Of a stretch of 64,000 nt of DNA, positions 1 to 64,000 are shown piece by piece. Numbering within the stretch: position 1 is the first letter of the stretch; each line of letters starts with the position of its first letter. The stretch is taken from positions 21,472-85,471 of the IMG/VR virus record IMGVR_UViG_3300015370_000516; one strand, 5' to 3'. Both the position numbers and the translations under genes were made by a program. The DNA is from a virus (lineage: Duplodnaviria > Caudoviricetes). A model generated the notes under the pieces. The model had not been told where the DNA came from and made no database searches. It was given only the letters and a program-made list of their open reading frames with translations.

Positions 1-793
1 CCAATCCTCTGTTTATCAATTCTTGCTGCGTAGTCAGTTGAACATGTTGGCTATAGATACCGAGACGGCTATGGGTATTTTTAATCGCATTGCTCAGGTA
101 GTCATGTCTTTCTTTTATGTTGACCAGGCTGGGAATCTACGCTATGAATATCCGCGTTATGCCACTGTGCCCAGTTCCGATCCGGATCCAATGGCTCCTG
201 GATTAAAGGCAGGTGCTCCTGATCCTGAAACCCCGTGGCACTCGCTTAACTATTGGATTTCAGCCGGAGATTTCTCCTTTATTAGCTATCAAGGTGGTGA
301 AGACGAATCTGAACGAGTGGCCACGCGGGTTGTGGCAGTACAGGATTACGCCTATTTGTCTGGGGCTTTGACAGAGCTTGTAAAGGCTTCCTTGTACAAT
401 GGTTATGCCGTAGTTGAGCCAAACGATTTATTACGCTACGGGTTACGGGAAGTTAATTTATCTACCTTCTATATGCGGACGCAGATTTCCAAAGATGTGA
501 TGAATAAATATGCTAAGGCCGCTCTGTATCATCTTAATTCTGCCTCCCGATCTTTTTCTATAGTGTTGAATCAACGCCCCGATACCATGCTAAATCGTTG
601 TCTGGTATTTTCAGAACGTAGCAGAGTGGGGCTGATAACTGATATTAGCGATTCATTTTCCCCCCAGAGTGGGCATCAGCGTACCCACACTTGTAGATTT
701 GTTCGTTACTTAGGTGAAAAGATAGAATACCCATGGGTCGCTATTCTGGATGCTTCAGTTAATTCCATGCCAGGCGAGAAGCAGGTGCGTTAA
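1..793 (+). CDS. Tail/baseplate hub-like structural protein, 5'-truncated by window edge
   Basis: Frame is open from position 2 with no upstream stop; TAATG-coupled to the next baseplate gene; call rests on position only. Confidence 0.4.
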   Translation, partial: QSSVYQFLLRSQLNMLAIDTETAMGIFNRIAQVVMSFFYVDQAGNLRYEYPRYATVPSSDPDPMAPGLKAGAPDPETPWHSLNYWISAGDFSFISYQGGEDESERVATRVVAVQDYAYLSGALTELVKASLYNGYAVVEPNDLLRYGLREVNLSTFYMRTQISKDVMNKYAKAALYHLNSASRSFSIVLNQRPDTMLNRCLVFSERSRVGLITDISDSFSPQSGHQRTHTCRFVRYLGEKIEYPWVAILDASVNSMPGEKQVR

Positions 794-11792: not shown

Positions 11793-11822
11793 TCAAGCGA
11801 TTTTGCCACAAAAAATGGCAGA

Positions 11823-11858
11823 AAGTTAGCTCCTGCACATGTTAAGGAGATACTTCCG
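11823..11858 (+). mobile_element. Right-end relic of family-2 tnpB element (copy D) carrying the SD of the sigma gene
   Basis: aagttagctcctgcacatgttaaggagatacttccgtg matches 39120-39157 at about 31 of 38 nt. Confidence 0.55.
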
Positions 11859-12571
11859 TGGCAGGAACCGTAATTCTAACAACTGGAGGCATACTCAACG
11901 ACCTCCCCCAAAAACAGCTTAGCAATTCTGAAGAGCATGAACTGATAGCCAGCTCCCAGAAAGGCGATATAACTGCCCGCAATAAACTAATTTTAGCCCA
12001 CCTCGGTTTCATCATCTCAGCCGCAAATCACATTTTAGGTCCGTACAATCCCCTACTTGAAGACATGATCCATGAGGGCATTCTTGGTGACATAATTGGC
12101 ATCGAGCGGTTTGATATAAATCGTACCAATATTCGCTATTGTGCCTATGGGTACTGGTGGGTACGGGATGCCATTACTTCGGCAAATCGAGCTGAAAAGA
12201 AGTATCTAAACCAACATGTCTTTTCCGTATTCGATAGCGATGTTGAAACTTTGGATAAACAAACAGCCGAGACCTTTTATCGTGGCCCAACCACAATACC
12301 AACACCAATTCTAAAAGACAGAGACCTTTGGGAAGAATATAAAGCCGGTGGTAGACTACAGGGTATTGATCTTTTGACAGAATTATTGAATCTAACTAAC
12401 GGTGGTTTAGACCAGAGGCAAAGACAAATCCTCATACGTAGTTATCATGATGGTTGGAACTCCACGCAAATTGCCAAAGCAACGGGACTATCCAGCCGCT
12501 GGGTTGCTGTACTTAAAAAGCGCGCCATCGAAGAGATCAAAGCTCGCGTAGCAGATAAGATGAGTGGATAG
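11858..12571 (+). CDS. Phage sigma70-family RNA polymerase sigma factor
   Basis: Region 2 (LILAHLGFII...EDMIHEGILG...ERFD...YGYWWVRDAI) and region 4 HTH (LDQRQRQIL...STQIAKATGLSSRWV...RAIEEIK); GTG start with AAGGAG SD. Confidence 0.9.
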   Translation: MAGTVILTTGGILNDLPQKQLSNSEEHELIASSQKGDITARNKLILAHLGFIISAANHILGPYNPLLEDMIHEGILGDIIGIERFDINRTNIRYCAYGYWWVRDAITSANRAEKKYLNQHVFSVFDSDVETLDKQTAETFYRGPTTIPTPILKDRDLWEEYKAGGRLQGIDLLTELLNLTNGGLDQRQRQILIRSYHDGWNSTQIAKATGLSSRWVAVLKKRAIEEIKARVADKMSG

Positions 12572-17369: not shown

Positions 17370-17410
17370 TTGTAAATGTATTTGGATTCTTGATAGTTTT
17401 GGATTAAATT
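17370..17410 (+). promoter_or_regulatory. Tandem sigma70-like promoters
   Basis: TTGTAA(17370)-N18-TAGTTT with TGn, and TTGGAT(17382)-N17-TAAATT(17405). Confidence 0.55.
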
Positions 17411-17412
17411 AT

Positions 17413-17583
17413 GAATCGAACAGGACAATTCTTCAGGTGTAGAAGCTGTGGCTACTCCTTGGACGCTGACCTCAATGCATCACGAAACATTCTCAATAGA
17501 TTTCTCTTCCAGGAGTCTTCAGACCCTGGGCAACAAGTTAAACCTAATCACAAACCTGTGGGTTTGTTAAAGGTATAATTCCG
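17413..17583 (+). ncRNA. Orphan tnpB 3'-end / omega-RNA-like unit (copy A)
   Basis: Translates as NRTGQFFRCRSCGYSLDADLNASRNILNRF (TnpB zinc finger plus RuvC-III) with no upstream tnpB; 48/50 nt identical to copy B over 17465-17514; ends in the shared end motif. Confidence 0.65.
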
Positions 17584-17629
17584 CAGAATAATTACTTACG
17601 GATTTGAAAACCTAAAGGAGAAAATTGAC

Positions 17630-22394: not shown

Positions 22395-23525
22395 CTACCC
22401 ACGAGTAACTTCGTGGATTTTAACCCTGTCATGGGACGAGTCTTCGGGCTGGTTTATAGCAGCCCCGACCGCGGCGATGTTCCGTGCCGCATTAACATCG
22501 GCATTTAGAACAGCACTACAGTTTGCACAGGAAAAGATTTGACCAGAACGATGCCCCAGACTGCCACAAAAAGAGCATATCTGGGATGTATAAGCGGGGT
22601 TAATTTTAATCACAGCGACCCCGGTTCGCATGGCCTTGTAGATAATCATCTGCTGAAGGGCGTAGAATGCCCAGCTATTGTGCAGACCTCGTTGGGATCT
22701 GCGCAGTTTTGGATTGGTGCGTTTCCGAATGTCCTTCAAGTTCTCCAGGGCGATGCTTCTGCCAGAAGCAGCAGCAGTTTCTACAATCTTTTTGCTGATG
22801 GTATGGTTGACGTTCTTGACGGCGCGAGATTCTTTGCCACTAAGCTGTTTGAGGGTACGACGGGCGTTTTTGCAAGTGCTCCGTTTTCCCGTTCCTGCCT
22901 TCGATTGAAGCGATCTGCGAGTTTTGTGCTGTTTCAATCGGTAAGTATTAAGAATCTCTCCACCAAACTGAACGCCATCCGATGTAGTTGCGATATTCTT
23001 AATTCCCAAATCCACCCCCAGAATTCCATCCGAAGTAGAGGATTCTGGGACATCCTCCTTAATCTGTATATTTATAAAATAATGCTTTTTGCCTTTGGTC
23101 AATTGTGCCGAAGTGGGATGTTGACCCGACAATGCTTGTCTTTGGTAATCTCCCAAATGAAGGTAAAACTTCTCTCGGCTCTCCAAGAGGGTAAGTTTCA
23201 CGCTCCAGTCATGTTCGTTGAAGGAAAAAATCCGTTCGTCAAAATCAACGCTGGAAGGTTTAAATCTGGAATTGGGGTTCCGTCTTAAAGCCACTGCTGT
23301 ACGTGCGATGGCACGGGATGCAAGATTAGCCTTCAGTTTAAAAATGGAACGTAGATTATAGTAGCATCCTCGATGAAGTGTGAATTGTCGTTTTTTGTCT
23401 GTCTTGCGTCCGTAATCCGCCACAAAATTGCAGGCTGCTGAAAAGGCTTTAAGGGTTCTTTCAATATGTTCCTGTTGTGGCTTTGTAGTCAACAATTTAC
23501 AGGATATAGTGCGGATGGCTTTCAT
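22395..23525 (-). CDS. tnpB: TnpB RNA-guided nuclease, catalytic residues intact
   Basis: GVDLG (RuvC-I), ALENL (RuvC-II), CSFC/CANC zinc finger, ADVNAARNI (RuvC-III). Confidence 0.95.
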   Translation of the reverse strand: MKAIRTISCKLLTTKPQQEHIERTLKAFSAACNFVADYGRKTDKKRQFTLHRGCYYNLRSIFKLKANLASRAIARTAVALRRNPNSRFKPSSVDFDERIFSFNEHDWSVKLTLLESREKFYLHLGDYQRQALSGQHPTSAQLTKGKKHYFINIQIKEDVPESSTSDGILGVDLGIKNIATTSDGVQFGGEILNTYRLKQHKTRRSLQSKAGTGKRSTCKNARRTLKQLSGKESRAVKNVNHTISKKIVETAAASGRSIALENLKDIRKRTNPKLRRSQRGLHNSWAFYALQQMIIYKAMRTGVAVIKINPAYTSQICSFCGSLGHRSGQIFSCANCSAVLNADVNAARNIAAVGAAINQPEDSSHDRVKIHEVTRG

Positions 23526-38978: not shown

Positions 38979-38993
38979 TTTACTATAACCTAA
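38979..38993 (+). promoter_or_regulatory. TTTACTATAAYCTAA motif, candidate phage promoter
   Basis: Same 15-mer at 54899 and 63390, always intergenic. Confidence 0.6.
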
Positions 38994-38997
38994 AAGA

Positions 38998-39155
38998 GAA
39001 TCGTAAGAATGAGATGTTTCGATGTATTAGTTGTGGGTACACAGAGGATGCTGACCTCAATGCATCTCGAAACATTCTCAATAGATTCCTCTTCCAGGAA
39101 CATACAGACCCTGGGCAACAAGTTAAATCCTTGGTATGTTAAGGAGATAATTCCG
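38998..39155 (+). ncRNA. Orphan tnpB 3'-end / omega-RNA-like unit (copy B)
   Basis: Translates as NRKNEMFRCISCGYTEDADLNASRNILNRF; homologous to copy A; ends tgttaaggagataattccg. Confidence 0.65.
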
Positions 39156-39697
39156 TGTCCAATGCTGGGTTAATAGCCCCTGATGGCACTCCGGTCACTG
39201 TAGATGAGACTACCGGCAACGTGGTGCGCGTTCCTGATCCTACAATAGAAGCTGCCAAGCGTTCATGGTCTGATCTTGGTTATCTTGCTGAATGTTTTAG
39301 CAATTTCTTAATGGCGATTCAGAAAGGCATTCCAAAGGATTATCATTATAAGGATAAGCTGGATTGGGTTTCAGCGGGAGCTCCGCGTTGGTGTGACAAG
39401 GACGTTTTTGAGTCTTGGCTTAAAGACCAAGAGGCTATGTTAGAATGGCGGTTGGTTGAGCTGGAACAAAAGTTTGGCTCTGGAAAACCAGCGGATCTTC
39501 AGTTAATAAAAATGCTTGATGGTGGGGAATTATCTGATTCAGCCCCGTTTCTGGGTAGGCGGATTAGCGCGGAGCATCGAGAAATCTATGAATGGATTCT
39601 GCGCAAATCACAGGAGGCAATCAAAAAATACAAACTTGGTGCTTACTGCTTAAACGATGTAGTAATTGAATTTCAGAGATTGAACGATGCCGCGTAG
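39155..39697 (+). CDS. Hypothetical protein, first gene of the head cluster
   Basis: GTG start with AAGGAG SD. Confidence 0.6.
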   Translation: MSNAGLIAPDGTPVTVDETTGNVVRVPDPTIEAAKRSWSDLGYLAECFSNFLMAIQKGIPKDYHYKDKLDWVSAGAPRWCDKDVFESWLKDQEAMLEWRLVELEQKFGSGKPADLQLIKMLDGGELSDSAPFLGRRISAEHREIYEWILRKSQEAIKKYKLGAYCLNDVVIEFQRLNDAA

Positions 39698-51254: not shown

Positions 51255-52141
51255 TGAAAAACAGGGTTTATACTGCCGAAGAATTGGTCCAGCTTTTACG
51301 CCAAAAATATAGTAGTCCAGACCGTTATGTGGTACTTGAACAGGTTGCTGATAGTACTGGGATAGGTTGGCATTCTTGGATTGATGCTGTTGTCTTGTGG
51401 CTTTGGCCTTCGGATGGTATAAAGCGTGCTGCTTTTGAGGTTAAAGTATCCAGGCAGGATTGGCTGCATGAAATTCAGCGCATTAACAAGAATGCTTGGG
51501 CTCGTGAGTACTTTCATGAGTTTTGGTTTCTTGCTCCTGATTTTGTAATTCAGATTGAGGAATTGCCCGAAGGTTCCGGGTGGATGAAACCGGTTGGATC
51601 GGGTCTTCGCATTATGCGTGCCGCATCACGTAAGGACAATCCGGCTTGTGACGATGCATTGATTTCGTCTTTGGCAAGATCTATGCAAAAGTACATCGCC
51701 AAGTCTGGGAAAGAGGCTTATAGATCAGCAAAGGAAGACGATATTGACTACAGCTCTGCCAAGAAATGGGAAGAGGTTGGCCGGGCTTTTCTACAGAGCC
51801 ATGGTATAATGAATGTGTATACGGTGGAAGTTTCTGACTTTGAACGTGCCAGTGGGGATGCCGGGACTCGAAGGACTGCGGAACAGATGCAAGATGTTCT
51901 GATTGGCCTACGTAGTAAAATGCAGAATTCCTTAGCGCATCATATAGCGATGGCCTATTTAGCACTTGATGCCACAGACGAAGCCGGTCAGTATCTTCTA
52001 AATATGTGGAATTTGGGGGTTGAAGCACGTGGCGATGTTGCCGCTTCGCTTGTTAAACAAAAAGAACTAATTCTAATACAAGTGCAAGATATTTTAAAAA
52101 GTCTTAAACTTAGCAGTCAATTTTCAAGTACCCACGATTGA
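51254..52141 (+). CDS. MmcB-like PD-(D/E)xK protein; C-terminal residues (SSTHD) encoded by the IS end
   Basis: WIDAVVL...AFEVKVSRQDWLHE...EFWFLAP...ELPEGSG. Confidence 0.7.
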   Translation: MKNRVYTAEELVQLLRQKYSSPDRYVVLEQVADSTGIGWHSWIDAVVLWLWPSDGIKRAAFEVKVSRQDWLHEIQRINKNAWAREYFHEFWFLAPDFVIQIEELPEGSGWMKPVGSGLRIMRAASRKDNPACDDALISSLARSMQKYIAKSGKEAYRSAKEDDIDYSSAKKWEEVGRAFLQSHGIMNVYTVEVSDFERASGDAGTRRTAEQMQDVLIGLRSKMQNSLAHHIAMAYLALDATDEAGQYLLNMWNLGVEARGDVAASLVKQKELILIQVQDILKSLKLSSQFSSTHD

Positions 52142-53236
52142 AATCGTGGGATTGTAAGTCATCGTTAGTTTGATGCCTACGATAGGTTGCTTGAAATCAA
52201 CCCGTTTAGAAATAACTTTAGCAGCATTAAGGTCAGCATTTTCAGAATGTCCACAACTACAGCAAACAAATTCAGCTTGATTTTTCCGGTTAGCTTTGTC
52301 TGTATAGCTGCAGCAAGAACATTCTCTTGATGTGTTTCTTGGATCAACCAGAACGACAGGGATGCCGTCTCTTAATGCTTTGTAGCTCAGAAATGTTCTT
52401 AATTGAAAGAATGCCCAACTACTGTGTTTAGCTCGTTCCGATTTCCTTACCGTGACTCTTGTTCGGATGCCTTTGAGGTCTTCAAGAGCGAATCCTTGTT
52501 GAGTGTCTTTAGCTTTCTGAACGAGTTTCTTGGAAACGCAATGGTTTACATCTGTTCTGAATCGAGATTCATTTCGTCTGATTTTTTTAAGGTGACGTTT
52601 AGCCGATTTGGTTCCTTTGGCTTGGAGATTGGCTCTGAGATTAGAGTATCGTTGTCGTACTTGTTCGACTTGCTTACCGGAGAACGATTCTCCTGTACTA
52701 TCGGTAGCGATGTTGATTATGCCAAGGTCAATGCCAATGAATCCGGTAGGTACTATTGGTGGTATTTCGGTAGTTTCAACGGTAGCCAGCAGGTAGAAGA
52801 TGCTATCTACGAGAACTAAATCAGCTTGTCCTCGTGCATGTTTCATTCTTTCAAGTTGGTAGCCGGAAAGAATCATGGGAATGGTTTGACGACCGACAAG
52901 AGTCCAGAGGCTAACGGATTCCAAGCCTTTGAATCGCATGATTCGACTATCATAGATAACAGCCCCAAGTGGCTTAAACTGGAGTTGAACTCGTTTCTTA
53001 CGCCCGGCATCGCAAACTTTACCTATAGCGCGAGCAGCCATTTGAGCAGAAAGTTCAAATTTAGATTTAACATTATAATATACAATTTTATGAAGGTTGA
53101 ATGCAGACCAGTTATTTTCATTGAAAGCAACTTCAGCAATGTAATTACAAGCAGCATTAAATTGTATCATCGTCTGCTTGAGAATCTCATGCTGTTCAGC
53201 AGACGGGCAAAGTTTTATTTTGAGTGTAGTCTTCAT
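52124..53236 (-). CDS. tnpB: TnpB RNA-guided nuclease, catalytic residues intact
   Basis: GIDLG, ALEDL, CSCC/CCSC zinc finger, ADLNAA. Confidence 0.95.
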   Translation of the reverse strand: MKTTLKIKLCPSAEQHEILKQTMIQFNAACNYIAEVAFNENNWSAFNLHKIVYYNVKSKFELSAQMAARAIGKVCDAGRKKRVQLQFKPLGAVIYDSRIMRFKGLESVSLWTLVGRQTIPMILSGYQLERMKHARGQADLVLVDSIFYLLATVETTEIPPIVPTGFIGIDLGIINIATDSTGESFSGKQVEQVRQRYSNLRANLQAKGTKSAKRHLKKIRRNESRFRTDVNHCVSKKLVQKAKDTQQGFALEDLKGIRTRVTVRKSERAKHSSWAFFQLRTFLSYKALRDGIPVVLVDPRNTSRECSCCSYTDKANRKNQAEFVCCSCGHSENADLNAAKVISKRVDFKQPIVGIKLTMTYNPTISIVGT

Positions 53237-54898: not shown

Positions 54899-54913
54899 TT
54901 TACTATAACCTAA
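54899..54913 (+). promoter_or_regulatory. TTTACTATAAYCTAA motif, candidate phage promoter
   Basis: Identical to 38979-38993. Confidence 0.6.
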
Positions 54914-54939
54914 AGAGGCAATGCAAAAGAGGCAACGCT

Positions 54940-61517: not shown

Positions 61518-61553
61518 AAGAAGCCCTGCGGGTTTGTTAAAGGTATAATTCCG
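61494..61553 (+). mobile_element. Right-end relic of family-2 tnpB element (copy C)
   Basis: gggtttgttaaaggtataattccg identical to the copy A end; gattcctc...aggaa...ccctg as in copy B. Confidence 0.7.
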
Positions 61554-63356: not shown

Positions 63357-63380
63357 CGGAATTATCTCCTTAACAGACCC
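63357..63380 (-). repeat. Inverted copy (E) of the family-2 end motif; candidate left terminal inverted repeat
   Basis: cggaattatctccttaaca is the exact reverse complement of 39137-39155. Confidence 0.75.
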
Positions 63381-63389
63381 ATTTCCGTT

Positions 63390-63404
63390 TTTACTATAAT
63401 CTAA
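63390..63404 (+). promoter_or_regulatory. TTTACTATAAYCTAA motif upstream of tnpB3
   Basis: Contains TATAAT; 14/15 match to the other two copies. Confidence 0.6.
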
Positions 63405-63427
63405 GCACAGAAACAATCACTTGAACC

Positions 63428-64000
63428 ATGCTTCGTAAATTCACAGTAAGTCTAAATCTTGGTAACACTGGTAAGCTCAACCAGCTTAGAGCTTATGCTG
63501 TGGAATATGTTCAGGTAGTTCAGTCTTACATAGACATTCTCTGGGAACAGGAAATATTTATCGGATCATTCATTTCCAAAGAAATATAAGATCAAGTTGG
63601 CACTTGGTTAGGTTCAGCATCCCAGCAATGTGCTGGGAAACAGGCATTGGCCATAGTCAAATCCCAGAGAAAGAAACCGGAGAATGAAAGAACTAAACCC
63701 GAATTCAAAGGTAACTCCCTGGATTTGAATGCTAACATTGTCATGATTTCAGATGGTGATAATTCCTTTGATTTATGGATCAAATTTAAAGGAGTAGGTA
63801 AGCATATCATCTTTGAAATTCCAGCTAAAAAACATCACCATTTCAACAAATACCTGGATTGGATTCGTAAGAAATCTGCCAGACTTAGAATATCAACTAA
63901 AGGTAACTTTTACCTTGACATCTTCTTTGAAAAAGAACAACCAGAACCTAAACAGGATGGTAACATCATTGGACTTGATTGTGGTTTCAATAAGTTACTG
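63428..64000 (+). pseudogene. tnpB: Family-2 tnpB with an in-frame TAA at 63587, truncated by window end
   Basis: MLRKFTVSL...SKEI*DQVGTWLGSASQQCAGKQAL...FYLDIFFEKE...IIGLDCGFNKLL (RuvC-I); missed by the ORF track. Confidence 0.85.

Follow-up and report, generated by a model that had tools for sequence, protein, structure and literature searches.

Two short pieces of tnpB sequence in a groundwater phage, here called fragments A and B, raise the question of why a virus should carry the very end of a tnpB gene twice, each time without the gene and each time cut at nearly the same place. The initial annotation of this locus took both for promoter-fronted omega-RNA genes, kept by the phage as dispersed guides for a TnpB acting in trans. 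Here, we analysed the window, a stretch of 64,000 nucleotides comprising bases 21472-85471 of an 85,471-bp IMG/VR virus record whose completeness is estimated at 46%; coordinates are in window numbering unless they are marked as contig bases or belong to a metagenome contig (L with a number). The phage is present in groundwater metagenomes of about 12 studies, and a run-level search listed no RNA runs containing it. No match was obtained in Rfam and tRNA scans of the whole window, in megablast against phage records, or in IMG/VR searches with exact and codon-degenerate DNA patterns and with P0001, a 287-aa TnpB protein of the family concerned (family 2).

Both fragments encode only the C-terminal part of a TnpB. 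Fragment A matches the Pfam family Cas12f1-like_TNB (E 3e-7), and the peptide of B is the C-terminus of P0001 bar one residue. Each holds the last ~45-55 TnpB residues, followed by a shared terminus that ends in ATAATTCCG; A ends at 17583 and not at 17584. The identical blocks noticed earlier (48/50 nt and 23/23 nt) were confirmed, as was the covariation of the terminal stem (ACCT/AGGT versus TCCT/AGGA). The divergence reported for the zinc finger is real as well; it consists mostly of synonymous differences and marks two allele types, both of which occur in full-length genes. The tnpB homology of A begins exactly at 17413, where the contigs of full-length copies from four other groundwater runs diverge from it. 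In B two further tnpB bases are retained for certain (GA, 38996-38997) and possibly five (AAAGA). Because of these extra bases, the idea of a common cut stands at the level of the same E-N-R codons and not, provably, of the same base.

To describe what is retained in these fragments, the right-end regions of twelve family members were aligned and folded with RNAalifold. The alignment and the structural model indicate that the family has a conserved omega-RNA of six helices (P1-P6, 35 pairs), in which 91% of cells are paired, versus 28-49% when the partners are slid, and in which 13 pairs covary by two-sided changes, versus 2-4 in the slid controls. RNAalifold gave P1-P4, and P5 and P6 were added to the pair count. 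Column 1 of the alignment corresponds to the G of GAATCG. The structure did not grow when 60 nt of coding sequence from further upstream were included, and nothing is conserved upstream of GAATCG. Since P1 starts there, the 5' base of the outermost omega-RNA helix is where A and B both begin. This coincidence is new here and is what speaks most for the initial annotation: the unit retained is indeed the predicted omega-RNA gene. The same unit of 153-158 nt, from the E-N-R codons to the terminus, is found in the full-length copies L054, L053, L051a/c, L012, L015 and L019, and it is encoded over the tnpB 3' end and the element right end, as a TnpB omega-RNA requires. The first 91 nt of six relatives fold at -25 to -34 kcal/mol (z -2.7 to -3.9). 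A covariance model, R1, for which seven full-length copies alone were used, gave 159-168 bits for full copies, 166.5 for B, 115.7 for A and 24.8 for the shorter remnant E. Like the omega-RNAs of ISDra2 and ISGst (IS200/IS605), the unit overlaps the last ~45 tnpB codons, runs to the right end, has a multi-helix scaffold with covariation and would take its guide from the flank; it differs in that two copies stand here without tnpB and in that the parent element has terminal inverted repeats and 8-bp target duplications.

The parent of both fragments is a family-2 tnpB element, of which the window holds the copy F1. The last 573 bases of the window are the 5' part of this gene (99% identical over residues 1-118 of P0001), and the remainder, with the right end, was found on metagenome contig L054. 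In F1 codon 54 is an in-frame TAA where aligned relatives have Gln. Relatives have ~350 aa, and because of the TAA gene callers give only 287 aa. A TAA was also found at codon 229 in L053 (about 409-411) and in P0033, a 9-aa deletion removes part of the RuvC region in L051a and P0002, and P0092 is frameshifted. Most full-length family-2 copies are thus pseudogenes. In two different copies, F1 and L053, the TAA falls exactly at a Gln position of the relatives. Recoding of TAA as Gln was considered and rejected, as TAA ends ordinary genes of this phage (e.g., 17346-17348 and 63347-63349); since TAA is an ordinary stop here, the two look like independent nonsense mutations. An intact family-2 copy exists in L051, only 57% identical, and several family-2 copies coexist within one metagenome. 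The family has the features expected of a TnpB, namely matches to PF07282 (zinc ribbon) and a RuvC D-E-D triad, present in P0001 as D (GLDCG), E (VVEDL) and D (DADLNAS). With just ~46% of the genome on the contig, a close and intact TnpB gene may be present in the remainder. Two intact TnpB genes of other families lie on the minus strand of the window (22395-23525 and 52124-53236; Pfam), with 35% mutual identity, and their 3' ends are unrelated to the A/B family.

The scaffold occurs in two allele types that differ in their pairing arms. In allele alpha (L053, L051a) CAGGA..ATTCTT pairs with AAGAAT..TCCTG, while in allele beta (F1/L054, L051b and B) GAGATGTTTCGA pairs with TCGAAACATTCTC, so that the arm changes between alleles are compensatory. 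Both are present in full-length genes and differ at many synonymous sites in the block that A and B share. Both fragments carry beta in this block; because alpha differs there synonymously, its near-identity in A and B reflects shared beta ancestry and does not speak for RNA constraint. Fragment A is itself a mosaic, with an alpha 5' part, a beta middle and a tail of a third type. Loose contig ends from other runs change from alpha-like to beta-like exactly at 17455-17461, and the mosaic is spanned by a single contig in independent assemblies. The first 91 nt of A fold at only -10.8 kcal/mol (z +2.14), which is worse than all 200 shuffles, and on R1 it lies ~50 bits below its relatives and does not fit the family structure. 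Since an alpha 5' arm faces a beta 3' arm, P2, and with it the 5' domain, cannot fold. By this model A is a recombinant between allele types and, as an RNA, a dead relic. In its terminal stem, at 17545-17567, A carries a 13-nt insertion that forms a perfect 7-bp hairpin (ACAAACC/GGTTTGT), flagged in a scan as terminator-like on the minus strand. A promoter-like TTGTTA-17-AATAAT at 17564-17592, found by a sigma-70-type scan, lies across the tail and flank of A.

These results bear directly on the proposal that the phage keeps A and B together as dispersed guides for a TnpB in trans, serving inter-phage competition or repression. The same omega-RNA unit is retained twice, its terminal stem covaries, and P0001 has its RuvC residues. 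However, A cannot form P2 and loses the ~50 bits mentioned above, the shared block is explained by ancestry, no promoter was seen before A, F1 is interrupted by a TAA, and a flank-derived guide has no match but the locus of the phage itself. A nuclease-dead protein is needed for repression of the TldR kind, whereas the catalytic residues are present here. We therefore regard this proposal as very improbable in the form given. Its structural premise stands for B, with an intact scaffold behind a promoter-like motif, and fails for A, a mosaic in which P2 cannot form.

Fragment B presents a different picture. Over its first 91 nt the folding energy is -27.5 kcal/mol (z -3.3), and on R1 it fits the family structure. 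In comparison to the full-length L054/F1 copy there are five differences in 158 nt (97% identity) and no pair is broken; five pair-sparing differences are expected by chance about one time in 10. Immediately upstream of B stands the motif TTTACTATAACCTAAA, which recurs at 54899-54914, at 63390-63405, at contig base 389 and in L051 and L054. At 63390, and likewise in L054, it is within the element left end, ahead of the tnpB ATG. It was also found in front of other phage genes, 25-45 nt ahead of their start codons. The sigma-70-type scan gave no promoter 5' of either A or B, and A has no counterpart of TTTACTATAACCTAAA in front of it; the fragments can thus not be called promoter-fronted as a pair, B alone abutting the motif. 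TTTACTATAACCTAAA is possibly a promoter of the phage's own sigma factor, which is encoded at 11858. If it is a promoter, the transcript would start a few bases at most from P1. For its GTG start codon, ORF 39155 uses the final G of the element. Since the AAGGAG upstream of this GTG is paired in helix P6, translation of the ORF could be controlled by structure. Origin of B by an internal deletion that kept the left end was rejected, as what lies 5' of the motif bears no relation to the left end. An empty B site was sought through homologues of ORF 39155 in IMG/VR and none was found. As modelled, B is a structurally complete omega-RNA gene, positioned for transcription, whose RNA may be used by a TnpB made in trans. 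Coordinates of these features are collected in the table below.

Table. Family-2 features of the window, junctions of the truncated copies and helices of the predicted omega-RNA (positions in window numbering, or alignment columns where stated).
Feature	Position	Strand	Breakpoint offset from P1 start (nt)	Remarks
Fragment A	17413..17583	+	0	5'-truncated right end of family-2 TnpB element
Mosaic of A	17413-17455; 17461-17540; tail			alpha 41/43; beta 77/80; third-type tail with 13-nt extra hairpin
Flank of A	17584..17603	+		would-be guide, then Shine-Dalgarno (SD) sequence and ATG of ORF 17630
TTTACTATAACCTAAA upstream of B	38979..38994	+		recurrent promoter-like motif, 16 nt, directly 5' of B, 2-5 nt before B
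Fragment B	38996..39155, possibly from 38993	+	-2 to -5	predicted intact beta-type omega-RNA scaffold and right terminus
P1 in B	38998-39002/39084-39088			
P2 in B	39011-39021/39068-39076			
P5 in B	39094-39098/39110-39114			
P6 in B	39128-39132/39141-39145			
Tail of B	39141..39175	+		AAGGAG SD 39141-39146 in P6 3' arm; GTG of ORF 39155; would-be guide flank
Tail remnant E	11793..11858	+	+96	P5-P6 and terminus only; Pfam Sigma70 r2/r4 gene downstream
Tail remnant C	61525..61553	+	+129	last ~29 nt of right end; tail type of A
Left end of full-length element	63357..63380	+		reverse complement of right terminus
F1, full-length family-2 tnpB	63428..64000	+		runs off contig; in-frame TAA 63587-63589
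L062			-8	
L051 copy at 14.8 kb			-45	
L061			about -90	
L086			about -110	
L051b			-125	
L051 mini-element			+61	two-ended
Family helix P1	columns 1-5 with 87-91			RNAalifold
Family helix P2	columns 14-24 with 71-79			RNAalifold
Family helix P3	columns 26-30 with 40-44			RNAalifold
Family helix P4	columns 49-54 with 65-70			RNAalifold

Fragments A and B are not the only truncated copies. Beyond those listed in the initial annotation, tail copies are present as remnants E and C, at contig bases 1-49 and, inverted, at the left end of the F1 element. The terminus of E gives the AAGGAG SD sequence, likewise paired in P6 so that structure could control translation, and the G of the GTG to a sigma-factor gene (layout 11841-11860), as that of B does to ORF 39155, and in L013 and L019 the start codon abuts the element terminus. 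Ten remnants with ten breakpoints could be placed in relation to P1, and three of them (A, B and L062) lie within 8 nt of its base. If breakpoints are confined to a range of ~250 nt, the probability that two more cuts fall near that of A is about 0.1; taken over the whole 1.2-kb element it is about 0.006. The three breakpoints at P1 hint at selection for the whole omega-RNA, or at a mechanism tied to it.

Three of these orphans come from other viruses. In L062 (588-1650), an unrelated 21-kb viral contig, a homing-type Endonuclease VII gene (PF02945) replaces tnpB residues ~90-310. The first 90 tnpB codons remain, as does the omega-RNA region in full, and the stop codon of the Endonuclease VII gene overlaps the H-K-E codons just 5' of P1. 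The orphans of L061, a complete 144-kb phage, and of L086, a 95%-complete 232-kb phage, belong to a sister subfamily, and no full-length TnpB of the family was found in these two phage genomes. All three fold well, with model scores like those of full-length relatives. A compensatory change in P1 of L061 was considered as proof of selection after orphaning and rejected, since the NILNL[YG]L variant concerned is common to the full-length proteins of its subfamily. A further small copy in L051 (10573-10780, minus strand) is a two-ended mini-element of ~210 bp, MITE- or PATE-like, in which the left end and 27 tnpB codons are joined to the 3' half of the omega-RNA and the right end; the 5' arms of P1 and P2 are absent from it.

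One may ask whether the boundary at P1 is merely mechanical. If the stable fold of P1-P4 (91 nt) stalled replication or recombination, whether in single-stranded DNA or in RNA, junctions of deletions and replacements would pile up at the base of the fold. The three junctions within 8 nt of the helix base each have a different partner (a phage intergenic region, the promoter motif with AAA microhomology, and the Endonuclease VII gene), and the domain is strongly structured (z -2.7 to -4.1). However, imperfect DNA hairpins of such a kind are weak and the other junctions are spread over 250 nt, so that we hold this explanation to be improbable. An origin of the fragments by copying of an RNA is unlikely too, because ordinary phage sequence, instead of a parental guide, follows them on the 3' side.

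The boundary could also be a functional one. B, L062, L061 and L086 would then be working solo omega-RNA cassettes, minimal selfish homing units that borrow TnpB from another phage copy, a co-infecting phage or the host: alleles without the cassette would be cut and the cassette copied in by repair, with A as a failed copy. Since deletion in such a unit could go only to the base of P1, this would explain the boundary in A, B and L062. It agrees with the intact folds and good model scores of the four orphans, with a promoter-like motif that ends 2 nt before B and would start a transcript at about the P1 base, and with the presence of several family-2 copies in the same metagenome; protein-less omega-RNA elements that need TnpB in trans have been discussed for PATEs (PMC10055086). 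However, no intact close TnpB was seen and four close copies are broken, two complete or nearly complete phages carry orphans without a full-length TnpB, seven of the ten breakpoints lie elsewhere (with the clustering probability of about 0.1), and the recency of B, indicated by its 97% identity to F1, can explain its intactness. On balance, working cassettes seem to us to be on the unlikely side, though less so than a mechanical boundary. In its boldest form, which we think unlikely, phages would carry solo cassettes trimmed exactly to the P1 base behind a phage promoter, borrow TnpB in trans and use them to home or to exclude rivals; the parent would be a TnpB element of a kind not yet described, having inverted termini and 8-bp target duplications, and L062 would have swapped the nuclease gene for an Endonuclease VII homing gene while keeping the guide-RNA gene.

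The explanation we find probable is that A and B are decaying, recombining remnants of TnpB elements, A being dead and B a decayed copy with an intact scaffold, with a role as a guide in trans possible for B only. Both are right ends, truncated on the 5' side, of a TnpB insertion element that this groundwater phage carries in multiple copies; the survivor in each is the predicted omega-RNA gene (P1-P6, about 158 nt) with the right terminus, and both would be products of decay in a family most of whose copies are broken. B is a structurally intact beta-type copy, presumably recent, fused 2-5 nt behind TTTACTATAACCTAAA. In this reading it has become the 5' leader of ORF 39155, to which it gives the SD sequence and the G of its GTG. 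The tails presumably persist since downstream genes rely on their expression signals and since the deletions are recent. The supply of translation signals can account for the survival of tails, but not for that of a whole scaffold: the last 20-60 nt would suffice for expression signals, while B keeps a 158-nt scaffold, and this speaks against decay as a full account. Random truncation points and the lack of an intact TnpB had been named in advance as findings that would tell against guide genes, and both are in part what we see, because breakpoints are scattered, F1 and three close copies are broken and orphans occur without a full-length TnpB of the family. The sequence facts of the initial annotation thus hold, and its guide-RNA interpretation holds only in part.

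The remnants can be compared to several known systems. PATEs are protein-less IS200/IS605 derivatives, often with omega-RNAs that need TnpB in trans (Meers et al., PMC10055086). They resemble B in being a protein-free omega-RNA unit, workable only with a TnpB made elsewhere; however, a PATE keeps both ends and stays mobile, whereas A and B have no left end, their 5' sequence being unrelated to it, and in the two-ended L051 mini-element the 5' arms of both P1 and P2 are gone. Solo or truncated insertion-sequence remnants, whose ends are exapted as promoters or ribosome-binding sites, are similar in being one-ended, in occurring at many loci with varied breakpoints, and in tails that give an SD sequence and start codon to the next gene; B differs from them by retaining a complete structured RNA gene. 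TldR proteins are nuclease-dead TnpB repressors with adjacent guides, some of them phage-borne (bioRxiv 10.1101/2023.11.30.569447), and are alike as a domesticated TnpB-guide pair acting on gene expression. Family 2, in contrast, keeps D/E/D, and its would-be guide genes are not adjacent to the protein gene.

Viruses can also carry mini-CRISPR arrays or solitary repeat units, which serve inter-virus conflict through guides that match rival viruses. The likeness is a virus with the guide part only; the difference is that the would-be guides here are the phage's own flanks. A functional orphan of the B type would rank as the smallest RNA-guided selfish unit known from a virus and would show that a guide-RNA gene can outlive the nuclease gene, a possible step toward systems of a nuclease plus an array. 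Even as relics, such orphans mark the 5' edge of the family omega-RNA without RNA-seq and show free recombination of element copies inside the phage population. Phage genes, namely the sigma factor and ORF 39155, take their translation start from the element terminus.

The ends of the element deserve separate attention. The left end matches the right terminus in reverse complement, which gives the element an 18-bp terminal inverted repeat; over the copies the inverted repeats measure 18-24 bp (CGGAATTAT... / ...ATAATTCCG), with termini of the form CGGAAYTAT...ATARTTCCG, and the inverted left end is also present in L051, L054, L015 and L012. Direct repeats of 8 bp flank three insertions: TAACCTAA in L051 (11531-12681), AAAAACAT in L054/L053, where the left end of L054 (640-660) is paired with the right end of L053 (806-825), and AAATGATA in L015 (around 2980 and 4093). 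The duplication is absent at two other copies. By definition IS200/IS605 elements have neither terminal inverted repeats nor target-site duplication (PMC13565253), and the family-2 element thus differs from them, including the IS1341 group. No match to Y1 TnpA (PF01797) or to IS1595 and ISL3 DDE transposases was found in the 85-kb contig, which covers ~46% of the genome. Inverted termini together with 8-bp duplications suggest that this TnpB element does not move by the peel-and-paste of IS200/IS605 but by another route. One element was found inserted into TTTACTATAACCTAAA, with TAACCTAA duplicated.

Assembly breaks fall within family-2 repeats, at contig bases 1-49, window 63880-64000, L052 1-49 and both ends of L054, and the record itself begins in a tail copy and stops within tnpB. 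That the contig end and contig start are the halves of one circular tnpB was rejected, as on L054 the gene runs on into a right end with another flank; L052, with the same tail at yet another locus, contradicts such a join as well. L054 overlaps the 3' end of the window, adds ~7.7 kb and then reaches another family-2 copy.
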